DNA of 59,060 nucleotides. Origin: an uncultured Deferribacteres bacterium. Lineage in GTDB: Bacteria > Zhuqueibacterota > Zhuqueibacteria > Zhuqueibacterales > Geothermadaptataceae. The stretch lies in contig CAXHAT010000017.1 in NCBI GenBank assembly GCA_964014485.1, positions 1 to 59,060 of the forward strand. Direction: 5' to 3'. Positions 7,995 to 20,205 of this stretch are shown one piece after another. Position numbers and translations under genes: made by a program. Numbering within the stretch: position 1 is the stretch's first letter; every line of letters begins with the position of its first letter. Under the pieces are notes generated by a model. The model did no database searches, was not told where the DNA came from, and worked only from the letters and a program-made list of their open reading frames with translations.

Positions 7995-8493
7995 TTCGGA
8001 CTGTTTCGGTTCCGCAATCGGTCTAAAGTCTATAGACTGGCTCTAAATAAAAAATGCTGCATTCATGGCCTCATGTTTCAGAGGAAATCCACAAATGCAG
8101 CATAGGAGGGAGGTGTGTGCGAAAGTCGGAAATACGCTCGATGTAGTGCTATGGCGTTGTTGCGCTAAAACGATACTGCCTGTTTTAGCGCGTCCCTGCG
8201 TATGTCCAACTTCACCCTTTATTTATTCAGACTATGTTCCTGAGCTTCTTTTTCTCGCCGTCCTGGCAATTTTTTCGTCCTTGCGCTCAGTCATCGTTGC
8301 GCATGCTTATACAATTCGGGCGCCAATTCACTAACTCCGGTCATTTTTTTTGTAAACGCTTGTTTTTAAAGAACGATCTTAAATTAACATCAAGTGCTCG
8401 CGTCTAAAATCATTCACAATTGTTGTCTCTCGGTGATACATTGTCTTTCATCAAAACGAGATTGAAACGCCGTTTCGAGTTTGGAGGTAAAAA

Positions 8494-10023
8494 TTGTCTG
8501 TTCGGTCAGTCCTTTTGCTTTTGAGTTTTGGTTTGCCCGTCACCCTCGCCGCACAGCAACCGTTGATTCAGGAAAATTTTAATGATAAAACGCTGGTCGA
8601 AAGCGGGTGGTTTGCCACGCCGAGCGTTGTGCGAGATTCAACCAACGCTAAGAGCGGACCGTTCAGCATAAAATTTTCAGGCGAACAGGCCATACTTATG
8701 GCCAATTTTCAAGTGCGTGATCCCGGTCTGCTGGAATTCTGGTATCGCGCACCGGAAGGTTCTGCATCTCTAACCGTTGATATTGAAGTTTCCCGTGACG
8801 CCGCATTGTGGCAGCGCATTTCAACCGGCGAATTGGACGAGCAAGAAAGCGGCGCGGGCTATCGAGCGCGAATCGTAAGCATCGACCGCATTGGCTCCTA
8901 CTACTTGCGCTGGCGCGTTAGCACGGGCAACGGCGAAACGTTTTTCATCGATGACGTTAAACTCGAAAAGATCACGGAACAGGCGCGAGAACGTCGACAG
9001 CGCGAGCAAGTGAGCGCGCAGGTCAGGAAGGAATTGATTGAGCTGAGCAATCACGAACAGACGCTTGTGACTTTCCGCTCAATCGGCGAATCGTATCGTG
9101 AAGAAGTCAACACGATTTTAACGCTAATTCGCCAGACCAGCGGCGTGCTGACGATTTCGTCATCGATTCAAGCCGTCTCGATTCGCAACCAGATGGCGAA
9201 CCCCGTAAAGTACGACAAATTCCACGAAATCGTGGCTTCGCTCAACAACGTACTTCCGGAAACCAAGAAAATGCGTTTGACCGATCTCGTCAAGCCGTTT
9301 GGCAACATCGTCACGCGCGCCACGAATTTTGTCACCGGCGGCATGTTGGGCAACCTGGTTGAAAACTTCAAAACGCTGCTCGCCGACGGTTTCAGCCCGA
9401 ACAATATTCACTCCGTTTTATTGAACAAAAAAGCGCGCGAAACGGCTAAAAAAATTGGCCCGGAACTTTACAAGCAAAGCTCGGAGTTTTTCGTCAGCAT
9501 TGAAGGGGATTTTGCGCGCGTCGATTCTCTTGACCAGCAAATTCGACTTGTGCAGGCGGAAGCGGCGGCGCTGAAAGCGGAAATTGAAAAATTTCTGAAG
9601 GATTACATCCAGTTTGTTGAGATTGACGCCAATGACGGATTTATTCGCGATCTCAAACGCGGAGAATCCGCGAAGCTGACCGAATTGAATGAAGACATCA
9701 AGCAGTTTTTCACCCGAAAGGTCGGCAGCGAAAAATCTTTTAAGACCCTCTCTCCCCTACTTGTTCAAACGCTGATCGACGCAGCTTCCAATCAAAAGCA
9801 AATCGAGTCCTACGTTTCGAACTACTTCGATCTCGCTTCGAATATGTTGACCTATTACCGGAATTTCGCCAAAAGCCTCGACGAAGGGAACAATCCGTTT
9901 CTGATCCAGGACGCAGCTTCGGCGCAGCAATGGAACGCGCAGCGGGAAACGGCCCTGGAATCCATTGCAACTGCGGAACGTGAATTTAGGGAATCATTCG
10001 TCGATATTGTGATCGGAAAATAG
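8494..10023 (+). CDS. Hypothetical secreted protein: N-terminal beta-sandwich-like domain, coiled coil, long helical C-terminal domain
   Basis: 509-aa ORF, GGAGG RBS before TTG start, signal-peptide-like N-terminus, FFIDDVKLE end-of-domain motif. Confidence 0.75.
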   Translation: MSVRSVLLLLSFGLPVTLAAQQPLIQENFNDKTLVESGWFATPSVVRDSTNAKSGPFSIKFSGEQAILMANFQVRDPGLLEFWYRAPEGSASLTVDIEVSRDAALWQRISTGELDEQESGAGYRARIVSIDRIGSYYLRWRVSTGNGETFFIDDVKLEKITEQARERRQREQVSAQVRKELIELSNHEQTLVTFRSIGESYREEVNTILTLIRQTSGVLTISSSIQAVSIRNQMANPVKYDKFHEIVASLNNVLPETKKMRLTDLVKPFGNIVTRATNFVTGGMLGNLVENFKTLLADGFSPNNIHSVLLNKKARETAKKIGPELYKQSSEFFVSIEGDFARVDSLDQQIRLVQAEAAALKAEIEKFLKDYIQFVEIDANDGFIRDLKRGESAKLTELNEDIKQFFTRKVGSEKSFKTLSPLLVQTLIDAASNQKQIESYVSNYFDLASNMLTYYRNFAKSLDEGNNPFLIQDAASAQQWNAQRETALESIATAEREFRESFVDIVIGK

Positions 10024-10032
10024 AGAAGATTT

Positions 10033-11163
10033 ATGAACGCAAGCCCAGTTGAAGCGCCGCCGTCCCTGGACGAAATCGCGAATATTGTCGCTATTGAGAA
10101 CCCGATTGAGCGCAATTTGCAAATCACGCGAGCTTACCATCGAATCAGTGTTGCGCTCTCAAAATTGCACGGCGGCGCCAACGCCAATTGGTGTACTTTT
10201 GCAGTTTGGGCTTCGAAAACGGCGGGCGGGTTTATTCGCAAGGAAAATGTCGAGGCCTTGAGCCAGGCGCTTGTCAAGAAAGCCGATTACATTGAAAAAG
10301 GACTGTCTTTGCTGCGCTTGATTCTTTCCTGGTTTGCCAAAGACGCGACGCTTGACAATCGCTTTATCGCCAAAATCATCGAAGAAATCACCGACGAAAT
10401 TGCGGAGAACATTTCTCACGGCAATACCATCGTTTTTAAAGAAATCGCCGAACTATTTGAAAAATTTCGCCAATCTTTTCATGACGAAAACGCGCCAAAT
10501 GAAGAAGCCGTCAACGCCTTCCTTACTGATATTCCTCATACCGACAACAACGCTCAGGATGCGCTTGCGACGGCATTTCGAAATTACTATTTGGCCATTT
10601 TTGAGAAAGACGAGAAGGCTCAAGCGGAGCAAGTTTTATTGGCGAACATCCTGATCGGATTGCACGAACAGATTCGCTTGCAACCGTCAATTGCCAACTC
10701 TATGAATGCGCCGCTGACACAGGACTTTGTCAACTTTTTTGTCAAAGCGTTTTTTGAACTATTAGGCAAGACGGCCCCAAGTTTTCTGGCCAGGGTCATT
10801 GAATTTTTATGGACGGGACGGCTGGAAAAGATTGCCGCAAGAATCGCCGAAGAATGGCGCGAAATCTCGACCGACTGGTTTATGATTCTCGAACTGCCGG
10901 AAGAAACGCTGCGCTTGGGCAAGGACGTGCCCTCGCGGATGCCGGGCAGGATGTTTCCTGAATACTTGCAGAATTTACAAAATACGAATTTATTGAAAGT
11001 GCTCAGTAAGTTCGACAGAACGCCCGACACAACCACGGGAAGCGCTGCTCATGATTGGGCGATTCTCGAAGATCGCATGAACTTCATCGCCGACCTGTTT
11101 CGATCACGCCAACAAGACCCGACACTTTTTCAGCCGCCTTTGTCTGAAACTACAATCACATAA
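10033..11163 (+). CDS. Hypothetical helical protein (NLQITxAYH / ANWCTFAxWASK / GLHEQIRLQP motifs)
   Basis: 376-aa ORF 9 bp after the previous stop; typical codon usage. Confidence 0.75.
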   Translation: MNASPVEAPPSLDEIANIVAIENPIERNLQITRAYHRISVALSKLHGGANANWCTFAVWASKTAGGFIRKENVEALSQALVKKADYIEKGLSLLRLILSWFAKDATLDNRFIAKIIEEITDEIAENISHGNTIVFKEIAELFEKFRQSFHDENAPNEEAVNAFLTDIPHTDNNAQDALATAFRNYYLAIFEKDEKAQAEQVLLANILIGLHEQIRLQPSIANSMNAPLTQDFVNFFVKAFFELLGKTAPSFLARVIEFLWTGRLEKIAARIAEEWREISTDWFMILELPEETLRLGKDVPSRMPGRMFPEYLQNLQNTNLLKVLSKFDRTPDTTTGSAAHDWAILEDRMNFIADLFRSRQQDPTLFQPPLSETTIT

Positions 11164-11200
11164 TTTCTCGGTTCTTTTACACTCAAACAAGGAAAGATTT

Positions 11201-12700
11201 ATGAAGCTTTTTCGTACAATTATGCTCCCGCTGCTCCTATTGGCCGGATTCGCTTTTTCCCAAGATCGCGCACTGCTGCCGGACTCAACCGTCGTAACGC
11301 AACACCAGGTCACGGTCAAGGGCGAGCGATTCCCCTATCGCGCCACAGCAGGAACGCAGCCGGTTTGGAACGCTGACGGTGAAGTGATCGCATCGCTCTT
11401 TTACACTTACTATGAACGCACTGACATCCAAGATCGTGCGTCGCGACCGTTGATGATTTCTTTCAACGGCGGGCCCGGCTCGGCCTCCGTTTGGATGCAC
11501 GTTGCCTACACCGGCCCCAAAATTTTGCAAATCGATAACGAGGGCTATCCTGTCCAACCCTACGGCGTGCGCGAAAATCCGCATTCCGTTTTGGATGTGG
11601 CGGACATTGTTTTTGTCAATCCAGTGAATACCGGCTATTCCAGAATTATTCCCAAAAAGGACGGCAAGAAAGAGCCCGGAAAAACGTTTTTTGGCGTGAA
11701 CGCGGACATCAGGTATCTGGCGGAATGGATCAACACGTTTGTCTCGCGCTACAACCGTTGGCCGTCCCCCAAATACTTGATCGGTGAAAGCTACGGCACG
11801 ACGCGTGTTTCAGGACTGGCGATGGCGCTGCAAAATTCTCACTGGATGTACCTGAACGGCGTGATCCTGGTCTCCCCCACTGATATTGGCATTCGACGCG
11901 ACGGCCCGGTTGAGGCGGCGTTGCAACTGCCTTATTTTACCGCCGCCGCCTGGCACCACAAAGCACTGCCGTCCGATTTGCAGAACAAAGACCTCGACGA
12001 AATTTTGCCGGAAGTTGAGGCGTACACTGTCAACGAGCTGCTCCCCGCAATGGCTAAGGGCGGCTTTATTGATGAAGCTGAAAAGAAAAGCGTCGCGGCA
12101 AAGATGGCCCGTTACTCGGGAGTTTCCGAGAAAGTTTTTGTGCAACACAACCTCGACGTCCCGGCTTCCTATTTTTGGAAAGAGCTTTTACGAGACAAAG
12201 GCTACACTGTTGGCAGGCTGGATTCACGTTACTTGGGAATTGACAAAACAGAAGCTGGCAGTCGTCCGGATTACAGCGCCGAATTGACCTCATGGCTGCA
12301 TTCGTTCACGCCGGCGATCAACTATTATTTGCGGGAAGAGCTGCAGTACAAAACCGACGTGAAGTACAACATGTTCGGCCCGGTGCGACCCTGGGACAGA
12401 GGCGGCAACAACACCGGAGAAAACCTTCGTTTGGCGATGGCCGAAAATCCATACCTGCACGTCATGATTCAGTCAGGCTATTACGACGGCGCCACGCAAT
12501 ATTTCAACGCAAAATACACGCTTTGGCATCTTGACCCAAGCGGCAAAATGAAAGATCGGCTGCGATTTGAAGCCTATCGCAGCGGGCACATGATGTATTT
12601 ACGTGCGGAAGATCTGGCGAGCTCGAACGAGCATTTGCGGGAGTTTATCGTGCAATCCACGCCGAAGAACGGTGCGTCTGCGCAGTACAAAATGAAGTGA
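11201..12700 (+). CDS. Peptidase S10 serine carboxypeptidase
   Basis: Signal peptide; FNGGPGSAS, GESYGT (catalytic Ser), SGHMMY (catalytic His). Confidence 0.93.
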   Translation: MKLFRTIMLPLLLLAGFAFSQDRALLPDSTVVTQHQVTVKGERFPYRATAGTQPVWNADGEVIASLFYTYYERTDIQDRASRPLMISFNGGPGSASVWMHVAYTGPKILQIDNEGYPVQPYGVRENPHSVLDVADIVFVNPVNTGYSRIIPKKDGKKEPGKTFFGVNADIRYLAEWINTFVSRYNRWPSPKYLIGESYGTTRVSGLAMALQNSHWMYLNGVILVSPTDIGIRRDGPVEAALQLPYFTAAAWHHKALPSDLQNKDLDEILPEVEAYTVNELLPAMAKGGFIDEAEKKSVAAKMARYSGVSEKVFVQHNLDVPASYFWKELLRDKGYTVGRLDSRYLGIDKTEAGSRPDYSAELTSWLHSFTPAINYYLREELQYKTDVKYNMFGPVRPWDRGGNNTGENLRLAMAENPYLHVMIQSGYYDGATQYFNAKYTLWHLDPSGKMKDRLRFEAYRSGHMMYLRAEDLASSNEHLREFIVQSTPKNGASAQYKMK

Positions 12701-15011: not shown

Positions 15012-15764
15012 ATGTTGCAAAACGAAGTCACTTGCCCGAATTGCCAGACGATTATTGAAATCCCCAAACATGCGCTGAACGACATGCGCTATATTTGCCC
15101 CGATTGCCTGTCCTCGGTCAACATTCCGGACAGAGTCGGCGAGGCGTTAAAGTGGGTCACCGTCCATTATCCTGACAATACGCAGGAGATGGAAGCCATT
15201 AAAACCAAGCTGCAGCAAGAAGGCCTGGATGTGCAAAGCAAGAAAGGCGGCGCCCGAAGAGGCGGCGCTTCCAGCGGCGGACGCACCGGCTTTAGCGTGC
15301 TCTCCGGCCCAGTCCAAATCCAGACGACGCAGGAAAACGCCCGAAAAGCAAAGCGCGTCGTCAGCGAATTTCTCAGCGAGCAAGAACAGAATCGCAGAGA
15401 GACCATCCCTGAATACTGCCCAACGTGTCATTCGGCGACGCAATGGCGGCCCGAGTGTCCGGTTTGCGGCTGGGATCTGGTCAAACATCCGGTCAGCAAT
15501 ACGCAGACGGACGGGTACAATTTCCGTTCGAGCCGGGAGATTCAGAAGTCCGTGAATTTGAAAATTTTGTTTTCCACGTTTTTTTGCGCCGCCTGGCTTT
15601 GGGGCGCCGGAGCGATTTTGGGGATTTTCTTCTCGCTGGAGGCGTTCTTTATGATAAAAGCCGCGCGCGGCAGACTGCGCGGCCAATGGCTCGCCATGAT
15701 TGGTCTCTCCATCGGATTCGTGGAAATTCTCTACACCATTCACTACTGGTTTGAGCGGCTCTGA
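15012..15764 (+). CDS. Hypothetical membrane protein with two zinc-ribbon motifs and a DUF4190-like C-terminus
   Basis: CPNC/CPDC and CPTC/CPVC pairs; RGRLRGQWLAMIGL TM hairpin; GGAG RBS before ATG 15012. Confidence 0.75.
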   Translation: MLQNEVTCPNCQTIIEIPKHALNDMRYICPDCLSSVNIPDRVGEALKWVTVHYPDNTQEMEAIKTKLQQEGLDVQSKKGGARRGGASSGGRTGFSVLSGPVQIQTTQENARKAKRVVSEFLSEQEQNRRETIPEYCPTCHSATQWRPECPVCGWDLVKHPVSNTQTDGYNFRSSREIQKSVNLKILFSTFFCAAWLWGAGAILGIFFSLEAFFMIKAARGRLRGQWLAMIGLSIGFVEILYTIHYWFERL

Positions 15765-16330
15765 CAAAAGACGAAACGGAGTGCAAAGCTCGCTTTGCCT
15801 TTCGTTCGGCTCAAATGGCTGAACATAATTTTTTCCGTGTATTTGGTAAAGTTTAAGGAAAGCCTGCGATTGGGTTGCAAGGCAAGCCTTGCACTCCTTT
15901 TCCCCGCTCACCACATCACCATCTCAACCGGATTCGTGGAAATTCTCTATACCATTCATTACTGGTTTGAGCGGCCCTGACGAAAGGCGAAACGGAGTGC
16001 AAAGCTCGCTTTGCCTTTCGTTCAGCTCAAATGGCTGAACATAATTTTTTCCGTGTATTTGGTAAAGTTTAAGGAAAGCCTGCGATTGGGTTGCAAGGCA
16101 AGCCTTGCACTCCTTTTCCCCGCTCACCACATCACCATCTCAACCGGATTCGTGGAAATTCTCTATACCATTCATTACTGGTTTGAGCGGCCCTGACGAA
16201 AGGCGAAACGGAGTGCAAAGCTCGCTTTGCCTTTCGTTCAGCTCAAATGGCTGAACATAATTTTTTCCGTGTATTTGGTAAAGTTTAAGGAAAGCCTGCG
16301 ATTGGGTTGCAAGGCAAGCCTTGCACTCCT
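15713..16330. repeat. Tandem repeat, 216-bp unit, about 2.9 copies, each with a gene 3' end and a GGAG REP doublet
   Basis: Units start at 15713, 15929 and 16145. Copies 2 and 3 are identical over their shared length; copy 1 differs by 6 transitions. Confidence 0.95.
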
Positions 16331-16764
16331 ATCCAATCTCCCACTCACCACTTCACCCTCTCTCCGACTCCCCCAATCTCCCTCTCAAATCCTCAACTTC
16401 CCCATCCCGACGATGATACCCCGTCTCCTCCACCAACGCCGCCGCCTGCTCCAAATGCCCCTGCGCCTGCCGTATCTTTTCCTCCGATCCCCGTCCTCTA
16501 TCCTCCGCCATGCAAAGCCTGCACGCCTCCAAATGAAAATCCGTTAAATGCAGCCGCATTTCCCCGCGCTCGGCGATTTCCTGCGCTTCGTTGAGATCTT
16601 CCCACGCCTTGGTGAAATGCGTCTGCACGCGATACAGCGCCGCCCGGGCGAGAAGACCCCACGGCAAATTATGCTGCGTCCCAGCTTCCCGCAGGCCCGC
16701 CACTGCCTGGTTGAGATGGTTTTCGGCTTGGGCAAGGAAATCGTTTTGTTGGGGAACGTCTGTT

Positions 16765-16808
16765 ACATCCCCCTTAGCCCCCCTTCGAAGGGGGGACGGG
16801 GGGGATGT
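16765..16808. repeat. 44-bp C/G-rich hairpin insert inside the TPR coding region
   Basis: ACATCCCCC-TTAG-CCCCCC-TTCGAA-GGGGGG-AC-GGGGGGGATGT; the reading frame shifts at or next to the 7-base run. Confidence 0.75.
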
Positions 16809-16839
16809 CTCGCGCAAGCAAAAAGTGCGCTCGACCTAA

Positions 16840-16972
16840 TACCATTTTCCGTGATTTTGTGTACATAGCTGGCCTGCCATTCAGGAGAATCTATGTCATC
16901 GCGAGCATTGGACGACATAGATTCCTTCTGAATGACAGGCCAAGTGTGGACGCCAAACTATGGAAATTGGTA
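16840..16972. mobile_element. 133-bp MITE with 3-bp TAA/TTA target duplication and internal REP-like palindrome
   Basis: TIRs TACCATTTTCC / GGAAATTGGTA (10 of 11 match); TAA at 16837-16839 and 16973-16975; removal restores ...NDNLS-L-GRAH. Confidence 0.9.
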
Positions 16973-19492
16973 TAAGGAGAGATTATCGTTAGCGATATCC
17001 AAAATCGAATCGAAAACTGGATTCCATTTCGGGAGTTTGCGCCACTCAAAAATTGCTTCGACACGCCCCAACACCTCCCGCGCCTTCCCCCGGCTCAGCA
17101 GCAGCTCGCAGTACCGGAAGCCTTGCAGGGAATAGAGATAGCGATAGTCCGGCTGTCTTTCCTGTTGCATGGCTTCGGCTTCGCGGTACAGTTTTTCGGC
17201 TTCGTCGAGCGCGCCGGACTGGTGCAGGGCGTCGGCATGGGTGGTGCGCTTGCTTTCACGCTGAAACGCATCCCCGCTGCGGTCGGCGAAGTCCACGCTT
17301 TGGCGGGCGTAATCCGTCGCTGGCCGAACCTCGCCCAGGGTCAGGAACAGCTCGCTGAGATTGCCGGCGCCAATTGCAGCTTGTTTCCAATTTTCTTGTT
17401 CAATTTGCATTTCCAACCCCGCCTGCATGGGCGCGGCCGCCTCGCGCAAACGCCCCAGCGCCCGCAAGCCAAAACCGGCCCAACTCAGGACAACGGCTTT
17501 GTCCGCATCGGTCAATCCCGCCGCCGGTCGCCGCCAGGGCGGATCGAAAAAATTGGACAGCGCCGCCAGATCAGCGCCAAATGCGCCGAGTTTGTGAACG
17601 CTGTACTTTTCATTTTTTCGATAAATTCTTTCATAGAACACATCATCCAACGCTTCCTGGTGCTTCCCTGCCAAACAGCCGTGCGTCACCGCCGCAAACA
17701 ACGGCTCCATTTCTTCGAGGGTGTCAGGCAGTTCTTTTTCCGGCAGGTTTTTGTAGTAATTGTACAAACGGCTGTGCGCTTCCGTCCAGGCTTCGGGGAA
17801 TTGTTGCTGCAAACGCTCGCCAAAATGCTCCCGCATCAGCGGGTGGCAGTCGAGCGTATCGGGCTTGTCTTGTTCTTCTGCTGCCAGCAGTCGCAGGTCG
17901 CGCAGGCTTTGCACGGCAAACTGCCGCTCGTCGTGCCCCAGGTTTTGCAGTTTGTCCGTCAAGCCGTGAATGGCCGGTTCTTTTCTCAGCGCGTCCAGCG
18001 CGCCCTTCGCCGCCGGGCGGTCGAACAAGCCCATCAGGTAGAGAATGTTCAATTCCGGCGTGTCTTTCAGCCATTTTTCGTAAGACTGCATCACCCGCCG
18101 CGCCTGGCCGCCCTGTTTTCTGTCCTTGCTGAGTTTGGGAATCAAGTCGCGCTTGCGGATTTCGCCCCCGTGTACGGTTTTCAAGTAACTGCCCAACAGA
18201 TTGAGCGCCAGGGCGTGGCCTTCAAACTCTTTTGCCGCATCTCGGCGTTCTTTTTCCGTGCCTTGCACGCCGAGCTTTGCGAGCAGTTGCGCGCCAGCTT
18301 CGGGCGTGAGATTGTCCAGATCGAGTCGTTGGCTGCCGCGGCCTTCGGTCGGCTCCAAATCTTCAATTTTCAGGCGGGTGGAGATCACGCACAGGCCCGG
18401 ATTGCTGCGCGCCAAATCCTTGAGCAAGGCTTGCATGCCCTGGTCTTTCAAGCGGCCCTGCATTTCGCCGGGCGGGTATTGCAAAGGCTCCAGACCGTCG
18501 AGGATGAGCAGACTGCGTTTTGCGCGCACCAGTTCCGCCAGTTTCTTGCCCTTGTCCCAGGGCGAGAGAATGGGGTCGCCGGTGTAGCCAAACCACTTCA
18601 GCGCGTCGTTTAAAAATTCGTCCGCCGAGACCTGGCGTTCTTCTTTGGTTCCCTGGCTGTAGAACGACCAGCCGTAGACCCGTTGCGCGCCGCGATAGTT
18701 GTCGCGCTCCATCTCATTCAACCAGGCGTTCACCAAAGCGCTCTTGCCCACGCCGCCCCAAGCCACGAGGGAGAAAACATTGACGTGCGGTTCCGCCCAG
18801 GCTTGGTCGAGCATGGCAAGCTCGTTCTCGCGGCCAAAGATTTCATGGTCGGTGATCGGGAGTTTGGCGAGGTGAAGCTTGGGCGGGCGAAAATCCTGTC
18901 GGCGCTCTTTCGGCGGCAGTTTTTTCAGTTTTCCGAGTCCAGGTTTTTCAACTTTGGGTTGGTTGGTGAGTCGGCGGTAGAGGTCTTCGTAGCCATCGTC
19001 GCCGTCGAGAAAATAGCGTGTGTAGCCCTTCAAATATGTTGGCAAGTGCGCTTCATCTTCCGGCGAGAGCAGCACAGGAATGAAACGCTGATTTTCAGCA
19101 TCGGCGTCGTAAATATGGTTGCGAATCAAGCCGCCTTCCCATTTCACGCCGCGCCCCTTGCCCGGTTTTTCCTCCCCTTTTACGCGGCGGCAATAGATTT
19201 CGGTGCAAATCATCAGCACGAAATCCATGTCATCGATTTGCTCTTCCATCCAAAGCGGCCAGCCTTTTGGCGGGTGCGGTTCGTACTGATCGAGAATGCA
19301 ATCCACGCCCTCGGCGCGCAGACGGTTGGCAAGCGCCAAAACCCGGTCGATGTGTTCGTCCGAGTCGTGGCTGTAACTGATGAAAGTTTTGGTTGCGCTC
19401 ATGAATTCCCCGAGTCGTCAATTAAAAGCCAGCGATACTGCGCTTTAATTTGGCTTCTTTTTGCGCAATTTGAAAGGAAAATCATAGTGTCT

Positions 19493-19722
19493 GATGTTAC
19501 GCACCTGCCCCAAAACGAATCGGCTTGATAAAAATATTGCGTTTACGTCATTCCCGTGGAGGCGAAAATCCAGGGGAATGGGCGCCATTTTCTGGATTCC
19601 CGCCTCCGCGAGAATGACCGGAACTAGCGTTCCGGAGTTTGGGCGGTTCCAGTTTCAACTGTAATTCTCGGCTTGCGAAAATGGCAAAACACCACATTCC
19701 GTTTTGGGCGATGAGCAACATC
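19493..19722. mobile_element. Putative MITE enclosing a CGTC-type REP doublet
   Basis: Imperfect TIRs GATGTTACGCACCTGCCCCAAAACGAAT and (rc) GATGTTGCTCATCGCCCAAAACGGAAT; internal CGTCATTCCCGTGGAGGCG...GGATTCCCGCCTCCGCGAGAATGAC; no clear TSD. Confidence 0.55.
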
Positions 19723-19752
19723 CGTTATTATGTAGATCGTCCCGGATTCTGT

Positions 19753-20205
19753 CTACGCTTCTGCGCCAACCTCGTTTTGGCTTTGCGCAATGGCGTCGCT
19801 CTTGTCGATGAAATCTTCCACGGTCATGGAAACGGGGCGATTGAACAGCGGGTAGAGCGTGGTCATCAGGCTGCCTTCTTCGTCGAGCTGGGTGACGATG
19901 GTCATTTGCGCATACTCAACCATAACAATCGCCGCGTCTTCGCCCTTGCCGATTTTTGTTTTCTTCTGCTTCACATTGAACGGCTTCACCGTGCCCGCCG
20001 CCAGACTGAGCGATTCCCCGGTTTCGTGGTGTGTAAAGGTGAGTTTAACCAAGCCTCTCACCATGCTAGTGAACAAATGCCCGACTTGCAGGCTGTTGTC
20101 CAGCTCCGCTTCAATTTGAATGTGCAGCAGCGGCATAACGTCGCCTTCTTTGTTCTTGTCCTCAGCCGGCCAGTATTTTTTGATGATTGAATTTTCAAAC
20201 GTCAT
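19753..20205 (-). CDS. Hypothetical cytoplasmic protein
   Basis: 150-aa ORF with GGAG RBS and normal codon usage; no motif recognised. Confidence 0.75.
   Translation of the reverse strand: MTFENSIIKKYWPAEDKNKEGDVMPLLHIQIEAELDNSLQVGHLFTSMVRGLVKLTFTHHETGESLSLAAGTVKPFNVKQKKTKIGKGEDAAIVMVEYAQMTIVTQLDEEGSLMTTLYPLFNRPVSMTVEDFIDKSDAIAQSQNEVGAEA

Follow-up and report, generated by a model that had tools for sequence, protein, structure and literature searches.

At positions 16,353–19,402 of the window (i.e., the whole 59,060-nt stretch analysed here, contig CAXHAT010000017.1 of assembly GCA_964014485.1, from an uncultured Deferribacteres bacterium), the minus strand carries what is probably (we estimate a chance of roughly 0.7) a recently inactivated single-gene sensor resembling the nucleotide-binding leucine-rich repeat (NLR) proteins. 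This sensor joined a SEFIR domain to a signal transduction ATPase with numerous domains (STAND) NTPase and a series of tetratricopeptide repeats (TPRs), was broken by the insertion of a miniature inverted-repeat transposable element (MITE) and by a frame-breaking hairpin repeat, and is most likely dead. A truncated stand-alone gene of SEFIR-STAND-TPR architecture had already been proposed in the initial annotation, and this proposal is supported by the domain, fold and neighbour data. The cause of the break, i.e., the MITE insertion and the frame-breaking hairpin repeat in the same loop, had been missed there.

The surviving open reading frame (ORF A; Table 1) retains native codons 1–810 intact, as initially stated, while its residues 811–814 (YQFP) and its stop codon come from the MITE. 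Lost from the protein are 144 of the inferred 954 residues (and not the ~160 first estimated), yet the corresponding sequence was not deleted and lies out of frame downstream, in leftovers of 10 and 134 codons. The larger of these was 79% identical to the end of an intact paralog in the same genome (P0004) and still encodes the conserved family end (EIAERGEM...GYHRRD). A simple frameshift was ruled out as the cause of the break, the frames being separated by 185 extra nt made of two repeats. Both lesions are situated in one inter-repeat loop, with 30 nt between them. When the genome of the window (a 465-contig assembly in which the window copy lies on contig C17) was searched with positions 16740–16990, many copies of two different repeats were found.

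The first of these repeats has a 133-bp core bounded by terminal inverted repeats (TACCATTTTCC and GGAAATTGGTA) that match at 10 of 11 positions, and a match of 74% to its own reverse strand extends over the whole element. It is flanked by a duplicated 3-bp target, TAA (16837–16839 and 16973–16975), which in the sense of the gene is the TTA codon of Leu810; downstream of this codon the element supplies YQFP and a TAG stop. Six full copies are present in the genome (on contigs C17, C52, C69, C6, C438 and C97; 82–95% identical to the window copy), next to partial copies on other contigs, and the duplications at the six full copies always follow the pattern TNA (i.e., TAA, TTA, TCA, TAA, TTA and TAA). 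Because it combines terminal inverted repeats with dispersed full copies and copy-specific TNA duplications, the element was classified as a MITE. Its core is too short to encode a transposase, and TNA duplications are typical of IS5/Harbinger-type transposases. No autonomous partner with the same ends was found in the fragmented assembly, in which none of the 58 end-like matches formed an inverted pair at insertion-sequence spacing. None of eight other full or partial copies overlapped an ORF of at least 100 aa.

The second repeat is a nested G/C-rich hairpin between direct repeats. By comparison with the family frame it contributes 49 extra nt, including a TAA that stops the incoming frame. 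When the MITE and one TTA are removed from the sequence, the frame runs through GRAHFLLARD and then hits this TAA within the hairpin. Since the inserts measure 136 and 49 nt, each lesion breaks the frame by itself. The intact paralog on contig C194 has a longer, in-frame hairpin at the same loop, in which CCCTTCRAAG occurs twice as a core, at a distance of exactly 29 nt; one such core is present in the window copy, which is 29 nt shorter. Moreover, a homolog from another genome (L016) carries an in-frame double hairpin at the same site. It is therefore most likely, judging from these alignments, that an in-frame double hairpin lost 29 nt between its two cores, through slippage or recombination, to give the window hairpin, and less likely that the latter represents a fresh 49-nt insertion with duplication of GTCT. 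Among the 66 homologs (out of 120 proteins) that matched the motif pattern, the loop was 17 residues long in 34 and up to 62 residues long in others, and several homologs with long loops carry hairpin-coded peptides. The loop is thus permissive.

Removal of 16837–16972 and 16758–16806 from the gene yields a read-through of 954 codons whose sole stop is terminal, and which aligns to its last residue with homologs of 936–964 aa. This read-through deviated at only 2 of the 173 columns that are at least 95% conserved (intact homologs: median 4, range 0–22, n = 107), indicating that the inactivation is recent. Of the positions at which the family is at least 93% conserved, 22 lie in the lost 144 residues, and these include the EIAERGEM and GYHRRD blocks. 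A second 814-aa record, in the 90% cluster but from a different contig (42,968 nt), has the same MITE-derived end and differs from ORF A in a single residue, i.e., His433, which is Gln in the window and is kept in 106 of 108 family members. The MITE-derived end thus occurs in two assembly records, and the window allele changed this near-invariant His433 after the break; a single change of this kind is compatible with relaxed constraint. The initial annotation had left open whether the product is dead, deregulated or altered in specificity; with 22 conserved positions lost and His433 changed, the first of these fits best.

Table 1. Positions of the gene parts, lesions and repeats (window coordinates, unless a contig is named)
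Feature	Position	Strand	Extent or basis
ORF A, surviving SEFIR-STAND-TPR frame	16958..19402	minus	814 codons + stop
SEFIR domain, residues 1–150	18953..19402	minus	Pfam, PDB 5y8e, VIA
STAND NTPase module, residues 175–535	17798..18880	minus	Foldseek, VIA, motif conservation
TPR-like helical repeats kept in frame, residues 536–810	16973..17797	minus	model helices, VIA
MITE insertion including target duplications	16837..16975	no strand	133-bp core 16840–16972
Ten orphaned codons (GRAHFLLARD) between the two lesions	16807..16836	minus	match to the family loop start (LSLGRA...)
G/C-rich nested hairpin repeat region	16758..16810	no strand	45-nt hairpin 16762–16806, GTCT direct repeats
ORF B	16353..16817	minus	154 aa
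C-terminal remainder, out of frame	16353..16757	minus	134 codons + stop; identity to paralog P0004, alignment
216-bp unit in three tandem copies, adjoining the gene stop	15706..16353	no strand	repeat comparison
Long frames with the double hairpin in frame	C114 6355–11166, 12922–21177, 21915–25748; C159 3989–11029; C269 3–5801; C194 4198–7182		

The assignment of the N-terminus to the SEFIR/TIR domains, as initially made, was borne out by three profile matches. Specifically, residues 5–132 of ORF A matched Pfam SEFIR (PF08357, of the STIR clan; E 7.3e-15, 56 bits against a cut-off of 23), the head also matched TIR_2 (E 1.3e-13), and residues 1–163 aligned to profile positions 35–198 of the PADLOC bSEFIR model (E 2.1e-57). 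The Bacillus cereus SEFIR structure (5y8e) was retrieved by sequence with an E-value of 9.2e-13, or 4.4e-17 with the family profile. In structure comparisons with VIA, residues 1–160 aligned with the SEFIR domains of Act1 (Z 16.5, 149 residues aligned, root-mean-square deviation 6.0), IL-17RA (Z 14.3, 145 aligned, 2.8) and B. cereus (BcSEFIR; Z 13.6, 143 aligned, 31% identity). The Asp at position 38 (19289–19291) is kept in 103 of 108 aligned family members, and the Glu at position 89 (19136–19138), within GVKWE and putatively catalytic, in 105; the three exceptions fit the three alignment rows that have no SEFIR motif. The head motifs singled out initially (FISYSHDS and GRGVKWE) are thus real and conserved across the family, as are the Walker motifs.

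Downstream of the head, the NTPase part contains a GGVGKS motif (G216–K220; 18740–18757), LLILDGLE (D302, G303 and E305; 18488–18511), Arg343 in STR, GHALAL (395–400) and D518-C-H520-P521, which represent the P-loop, Walker B, sensor Arg, GxP-like and MHD-like motifs. These elements (G216–K220, D302/G303/E305, R343, G395–L400 and D518/H520/P521) occur in this order, each in at least 103 of the 108 homologs. Sub-threshold Pfam matches to AAA_16, NACHT and NB-ARC spanned residues 188–340, and those to TPR_12 and TPR_MalT residues 636–750. An AlphaFold model (built from a 25-sequence alignment; mean predicted local distance difference test score, pLDDT, 80.9) was compared with known structures, and with Foldseek the NTPase part matched the archaeal STAND-TPR protein 6mfv (1.9e-13), Apaf-1 (1.5e-10), plant RPP1 (9.1e-10), MalT (1.3e-07), Avs3 (8dgc; 4.7e-07) and the Avs5 filament (9nc9; 1.3e-06). 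With VIA, residues 176–694 gave Z-scores of 20.8 for MalT, 20.2 for 6mfv, 20.1 for NRC2 and 19.2 for Apaf-1; these scores are tied (within ~1.5 Z) and favour none of the AP-ATPase/NB-ARC, MalT-type and NACHT clades. Residues 536–790 aligned with a TPR of LGN/Pins type (VIA Z ~17). A sequence-profile search of the PDB with the NTPase part returned no STAND structure at E-values up to 0.01. The hidden Markov model search and structure prediction suggested in the initial annotation therefore place the SEFIR domain above threshold and support both the STAND fold and the TPRs.

The ancestor of this gene would thus have been a protein of ~954 residues, with a SEFIR effector of the NAD+-depleting kind, a switch of the Apaf-1/NB-ARC/MalT fold and a TPR-like sensor of ~420 residues. 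By analogy with Avs and with plant TIR-NLRs, a ligand bound by the repeats would free the NTPase, and the freed protein would oligomerise and gather its SEFIR heads, which would then degrade NAD+ and halt growth of the infected cell. Parts of this scheme have been reported for other proteins, namely protection against phi29 for a SEFIR protein of Bacillus (10.1101/2022.05.11.491447), NAD+ depletion by the N-terminal domain of the single-gene SEFIR system (10.1101/2024.02.11.579819; 10.64898/2026.09.04.749371), and both the binding of phage proteins and oligomerisation for STAND proteins whose sensors are TPRs (PMC13581612). In the window gene, one lesion is the MITE, inserted at the TTA codon of Leu810 with a 3-bp duplication, which adds four foreign codons and a stop, and the other is the hairpin, 30 nt further on, with 49 extra nt. 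Either lesion alone removes the conserved last 134–144 residues. The present allele would then be inactive, and the genome would rely on its two intact paralogs, with a TIR and a helical head.

The family to which the gene belongs is large: of 8,000 scored database candidates, at least 5,169 proteins matched at E-values up to 1e-3. Outside the lineage, the best relatives were 55–68% identical over the full length (930–990 aa). In a collection of species-representative genomes, relatives were encoded in 586 stretches, whose named records cover many phyla, and some genomes had two to four copies each. Groups in which the family is common include Anaerolineae, Desulfonema, cable bacteria and Polyangia, which are filamentous or socially complex. 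Among 31 genomes (30 related ones and that of the window; the unpublished G023 is included in these counts), 14 had a match at E-values up to 1e-20, with 0–5 matches each. Some of these matches are in pieces or contain stops (e.g., G008:C1:223717–225701, G009:C218 and G014:C42), so that loss seems frequent in this order. The heads at the five best loci of the relatives were TIR in four cases and helical in one. In a Bacteroidia homolog (L047), a SEFIR head (8001–8792, 264 aa) and a STAND-TPR body (8792–11650, 952 aa) form abutting ORFs, the gene being either split or frameshifted.

Three copies are present in the genome of the window, i.e., the broken SEFIR copy and the two intact paralogs, of which P0004 (C136:192–3011) is 940 aa long and has an all-helical head of no known family, while the one on C194 is 994 aa long and has a TIR_2 head. 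From residue 168 onwards, the window copy and the C136 paralog were 78–96% identical at the DNA level in most 90-column windows, with a dip to 0.64 at 766–825; upstream of residue 168 they are unrelated, indicating that the head was swapped at the linker. The C194 paralog is ~50–70% identical to both other copies over most of its length, and this identity jumps to 88–94% at residues 527–586 and to 78–92% in the C-terminal part. Such mosaic identity among C17, C136 and C194 suggests an exchange of segments between the paralogs.

An all-helical N-terminal domain of ~180 residues with a hydrophobic first helix was observed in P0004 and also in P0095, P0114 and L096. The head of P0004 had no Pfam match at E-values up to 10, and a protein-atlas search returned no structural match above a template modelling score of 0.5, with sub-threshold leads only (NNH2, 0.84). 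A language model gave a weak likeness to "NACHT N-terminal helical domain 2", and the AlphaFold model of this head, built from four sequences, had a pLDDT of 43. By analogy, it could be a membrane-acting head akin to that of coiled-coil (CC)-type NLRs.

Two further repeat observations concern the surroundings of these genes. Each copy of the 216-bp unit behind the window gene duplicates the last ~59 nt of the convergent zinc-ribbon gene, and its positions ~62–197 constitute another dispersed inverted-repeat element, arms of which occur on more than 20 contigs. The same unit also follows the stop of the C136 paralog (C136:1–177), where it is 93% identical and hence more alike than the genes themselves. 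The G/C-rich double hairpin, for its part, was found in frame in six long frames of the genome of the window (Table 1), and its translation is in every case an IPL.PFEGG-type peptide together with SPLRRGAGGDV, the two occurring in either order. Of the six, five (1,278–2,752 aa) look like type I polyketide synthases (PKSs), and the remaining one is the TIR-headed NLR paralog. Two of the five were checked against Pfam and contain KS, AT, DH, ER and KR domains; in one of them the hairpin lies inside the split DH domain, while in the other it occupies a linker. It is conceivable, though we consider it quite improbable, that the double hairpin is a recurrent, slippage-prone in-frame cassette acting as a reversible frame switch (i.e., a contingency locus) for a potentially suicidal NLR gene. 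If so, the 29-nt state of the window gene would be an OFF setting instead of decay, and the same cassette would have been domesticated as a linker in PKS and NLR proteins of this lineage.

Regarding the immediate locus, the initial annotation had described the gene as richer in GC than its neighbours, and indeed ORF A (0.573) and the C-terminal remainder (0.595) exceed the genome (0.502), the window (0.496) and the 5-kb flanks (0.48–0.52). No Rfam match was found in 15500–19800 at E-values up to 0.1, and the upstream 150-aa ORF and the convergent 308-aa zinc-ribbon ORF had no homolog in 80 related loci. The surroundings of homologs were examined at 30 loci, with up to two ORFs on each side, ORFs above 1,300 aa excluded, and PADLOC models applied at an E-value of 1e-5. 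Of the neighbouring ORFs, 11 of 115 matched, or 10 of 114 after subtraction of a SEFIR head split off from the gene itself, and 4 of 35 ordinary ORFs of the window, taken as a control, matched largely the same generic models (mad2, pVip and PDC-M51A). A few homolog neighbours look like genuine defence genes, namely HerA, a DEDDh-WYL protein and a nuclease.

The interruption might in principle be an assembly artefact, in which repeats were mis-joined in a metagenome bin and the true gene is intact: the assembly consists of 465 contigs, each lesion is a repeat, and errors are common at G/C hairpins and homopolymer runs. Nevertheless, this is very improbable, given the clean target duplication, whose 3 bp form a codon in agreement with the family alignment, the second record with one residue different and the same MITE-derived stop on another contig, and a 616-nt contig of run X1 (27 differences) that spans the hairpin and 76 nt of the MITE, hence the left junction, with all of its five gaps elsewhere. 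No run contig bridged the MITE as an empty site among these short and fragmentary contigs, in which the sole joint (17468–17651) has a side of 22 letters. A real but still functional 814-residue product, i.e., a hypomorphic, constitutively primed or altered-specificity sensor, maybe aided by a separate C-terminal piece, has some support, as the 810 native codons, all conserved NTPase motifs and E89 are intact and the truncated allele is present in two assembly records; moreover, removal of repeats can deregulate other STAND proteins. Yet we regard such a product as unlikely, because the lost 144 residues hold the 22 positions conserved at 93% or more, the window has Gln where the other truncated allele keeps the near-invariant His433 (albeit a single change), a constitutively active NAD+-degrading head would be counter-selected, and the start codon of ORF B would be a TTG inside hairpin-derived sequence.

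A different question is whether the family is anti-phage at all, or rather constitutes a module for regulated cell death, kin conflict or signalling in which SEFIR serves as an adaptor and not as an NADase. The lack of enrichment in defence contexts and the prevalence in filamentous or socially complex groups favour this view, as does the fact that eukaryotic SEFIR domains are adaptors and that a bacterial SEFIR was first proposed as an interaction domain. Against it, SEFIR and TIR heads are exchanged on near-identical bodies, both in the genome of the window and in its relatives, which is the pattern of interchangeable killing domains, and the one bacterial SEFIR protein tested defends against phage with reported NAD+ depletion. 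An origin outside phage defence is accordingly rated as rather doubtful, and the locus is still best read as a recently inactivated immune sensor. A number of points weigh against that reading. In the window, the genes around it encode a subtilase, a zinc-ribbon membrane protein and a MacB-type permease, and defence genes were not enriched near the homologs (10/114 vs. 4/35, with a small control from one window), so that the defence role, deduced from domain logic, is putative; for the defence sensor proposed initially, the domain architecture is therefore supported, and the proximity of homologs to defence genes, named there as a check, showed no excess. The repeats are unusually conserved for a pathogen sensor (55–68% identity across phyla), and the Pfam scores of the NTPase part were all below threshold (15.4 against 23.5 for NB-ARC, 20.0 against 26.7 for NACHT and 22.7 against 32.6 for AAA_16). 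D40A is the only bSEFIR mutant found in the literature and is called an interface residue, and catalysis by E89 is putative. At the right MITE junction, a run contig has only 29 letters on the MITE side, below the rule of 31, and both the relative age of the lesions and the origin of the hairpin by deletion are inferred. Finally, no paper was found that tests or names the SEFIR-STAND-TPR family, though the supplementary tables of PMC13581612 may list the clade.

The window gene is a pseudogenised member of a very common SEFIR-STAND-TPR architecture and, on its own, one dead copy of such a family carries little weight. The family as a whole, with SEFIR, TIR or helical heads on near-identical bodies and an unusually conserved sensor, seems a good target for finding a conserved trigger. 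In addition, the locus offers a dated example of the loss of a bacterial NLR-like gene through a MITE and a repeat-mediated deletion, the exchange of segments among its paralogs can be likened to the repertoire turnover of plant and fungal NLRs, and the in-frame hairpin repeats in PKS and NLR genes would extend a Rickettsia-like phenomenon to a distant phylum.

Among known systems, bSEFIR of Bacillus sp. NIO-1130 (10.1101/2022.05.11.491447; PADLOC PDLC03957) is likewise a single gene with an N-terminal SEFIR domain. The Asp aligned to Asp37 of 5y8e is conserved in the window protein and may correspond to the Asp mutated in bSEFIR; conservation extends to the Glu of the GV..E block, which aligns in 5y8e too. 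In contrast, nothing past position 198 of the 412 profile positions was matched, and in place of the remainder of bSEFIR the window protein has a STAND NTPase and TPRs, so that sensing and activation must differ. The inactivation of CRISPR-Cas by insertion sequences (PMC10359306) is similar in that a mobile element switches off an immune gene, but differs in that the element here is a non-autonomous 133-bp MITE, the target an NLR-like gene, and a second, independent lesion is present.

The Avs/AVAST proteins and defence STAND NTPases with TPR-like sensors share the order of head, NTPase and helical repeats and the swappable heads (PMC13581612). The window protein, at ~954 aa, is shorter and has repeats with much stronger conservation between phyla, and the Avs1–5 and bNACHT models of PADLOC-DB 2.0 gave no match at E-values up to 0.1, only bSEFIR and a weak SAVED-TIR being retrieved. 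The NTPase superposes on those of Apaf-1, the plant TIR-NLRs RPP1 and ROQ1, and MalT (VIA Z 19–21 over ~320–420 residues), and the combination of a TIR-superfamily head with an NB-ARC-like switch mirrors that of the plant TIR-NLRs. Unlike in Apaf-1 and the plant NLRs, the sensor consists of TPRs instead of leucine-rich or WD40 repeats, and the match to Pfam NB-ARC stays below its cut-off. In the Rickettsia palindromic elements, short palindromic repeats sit in frame inside coding genes, and the in-frame hairpin of the PKS-like frames and of the NLR paralog is alike in this respect; the hairpin described here is much shorter and G/C-rich, is only putatively mobile, and breaks the frame in the window gene.

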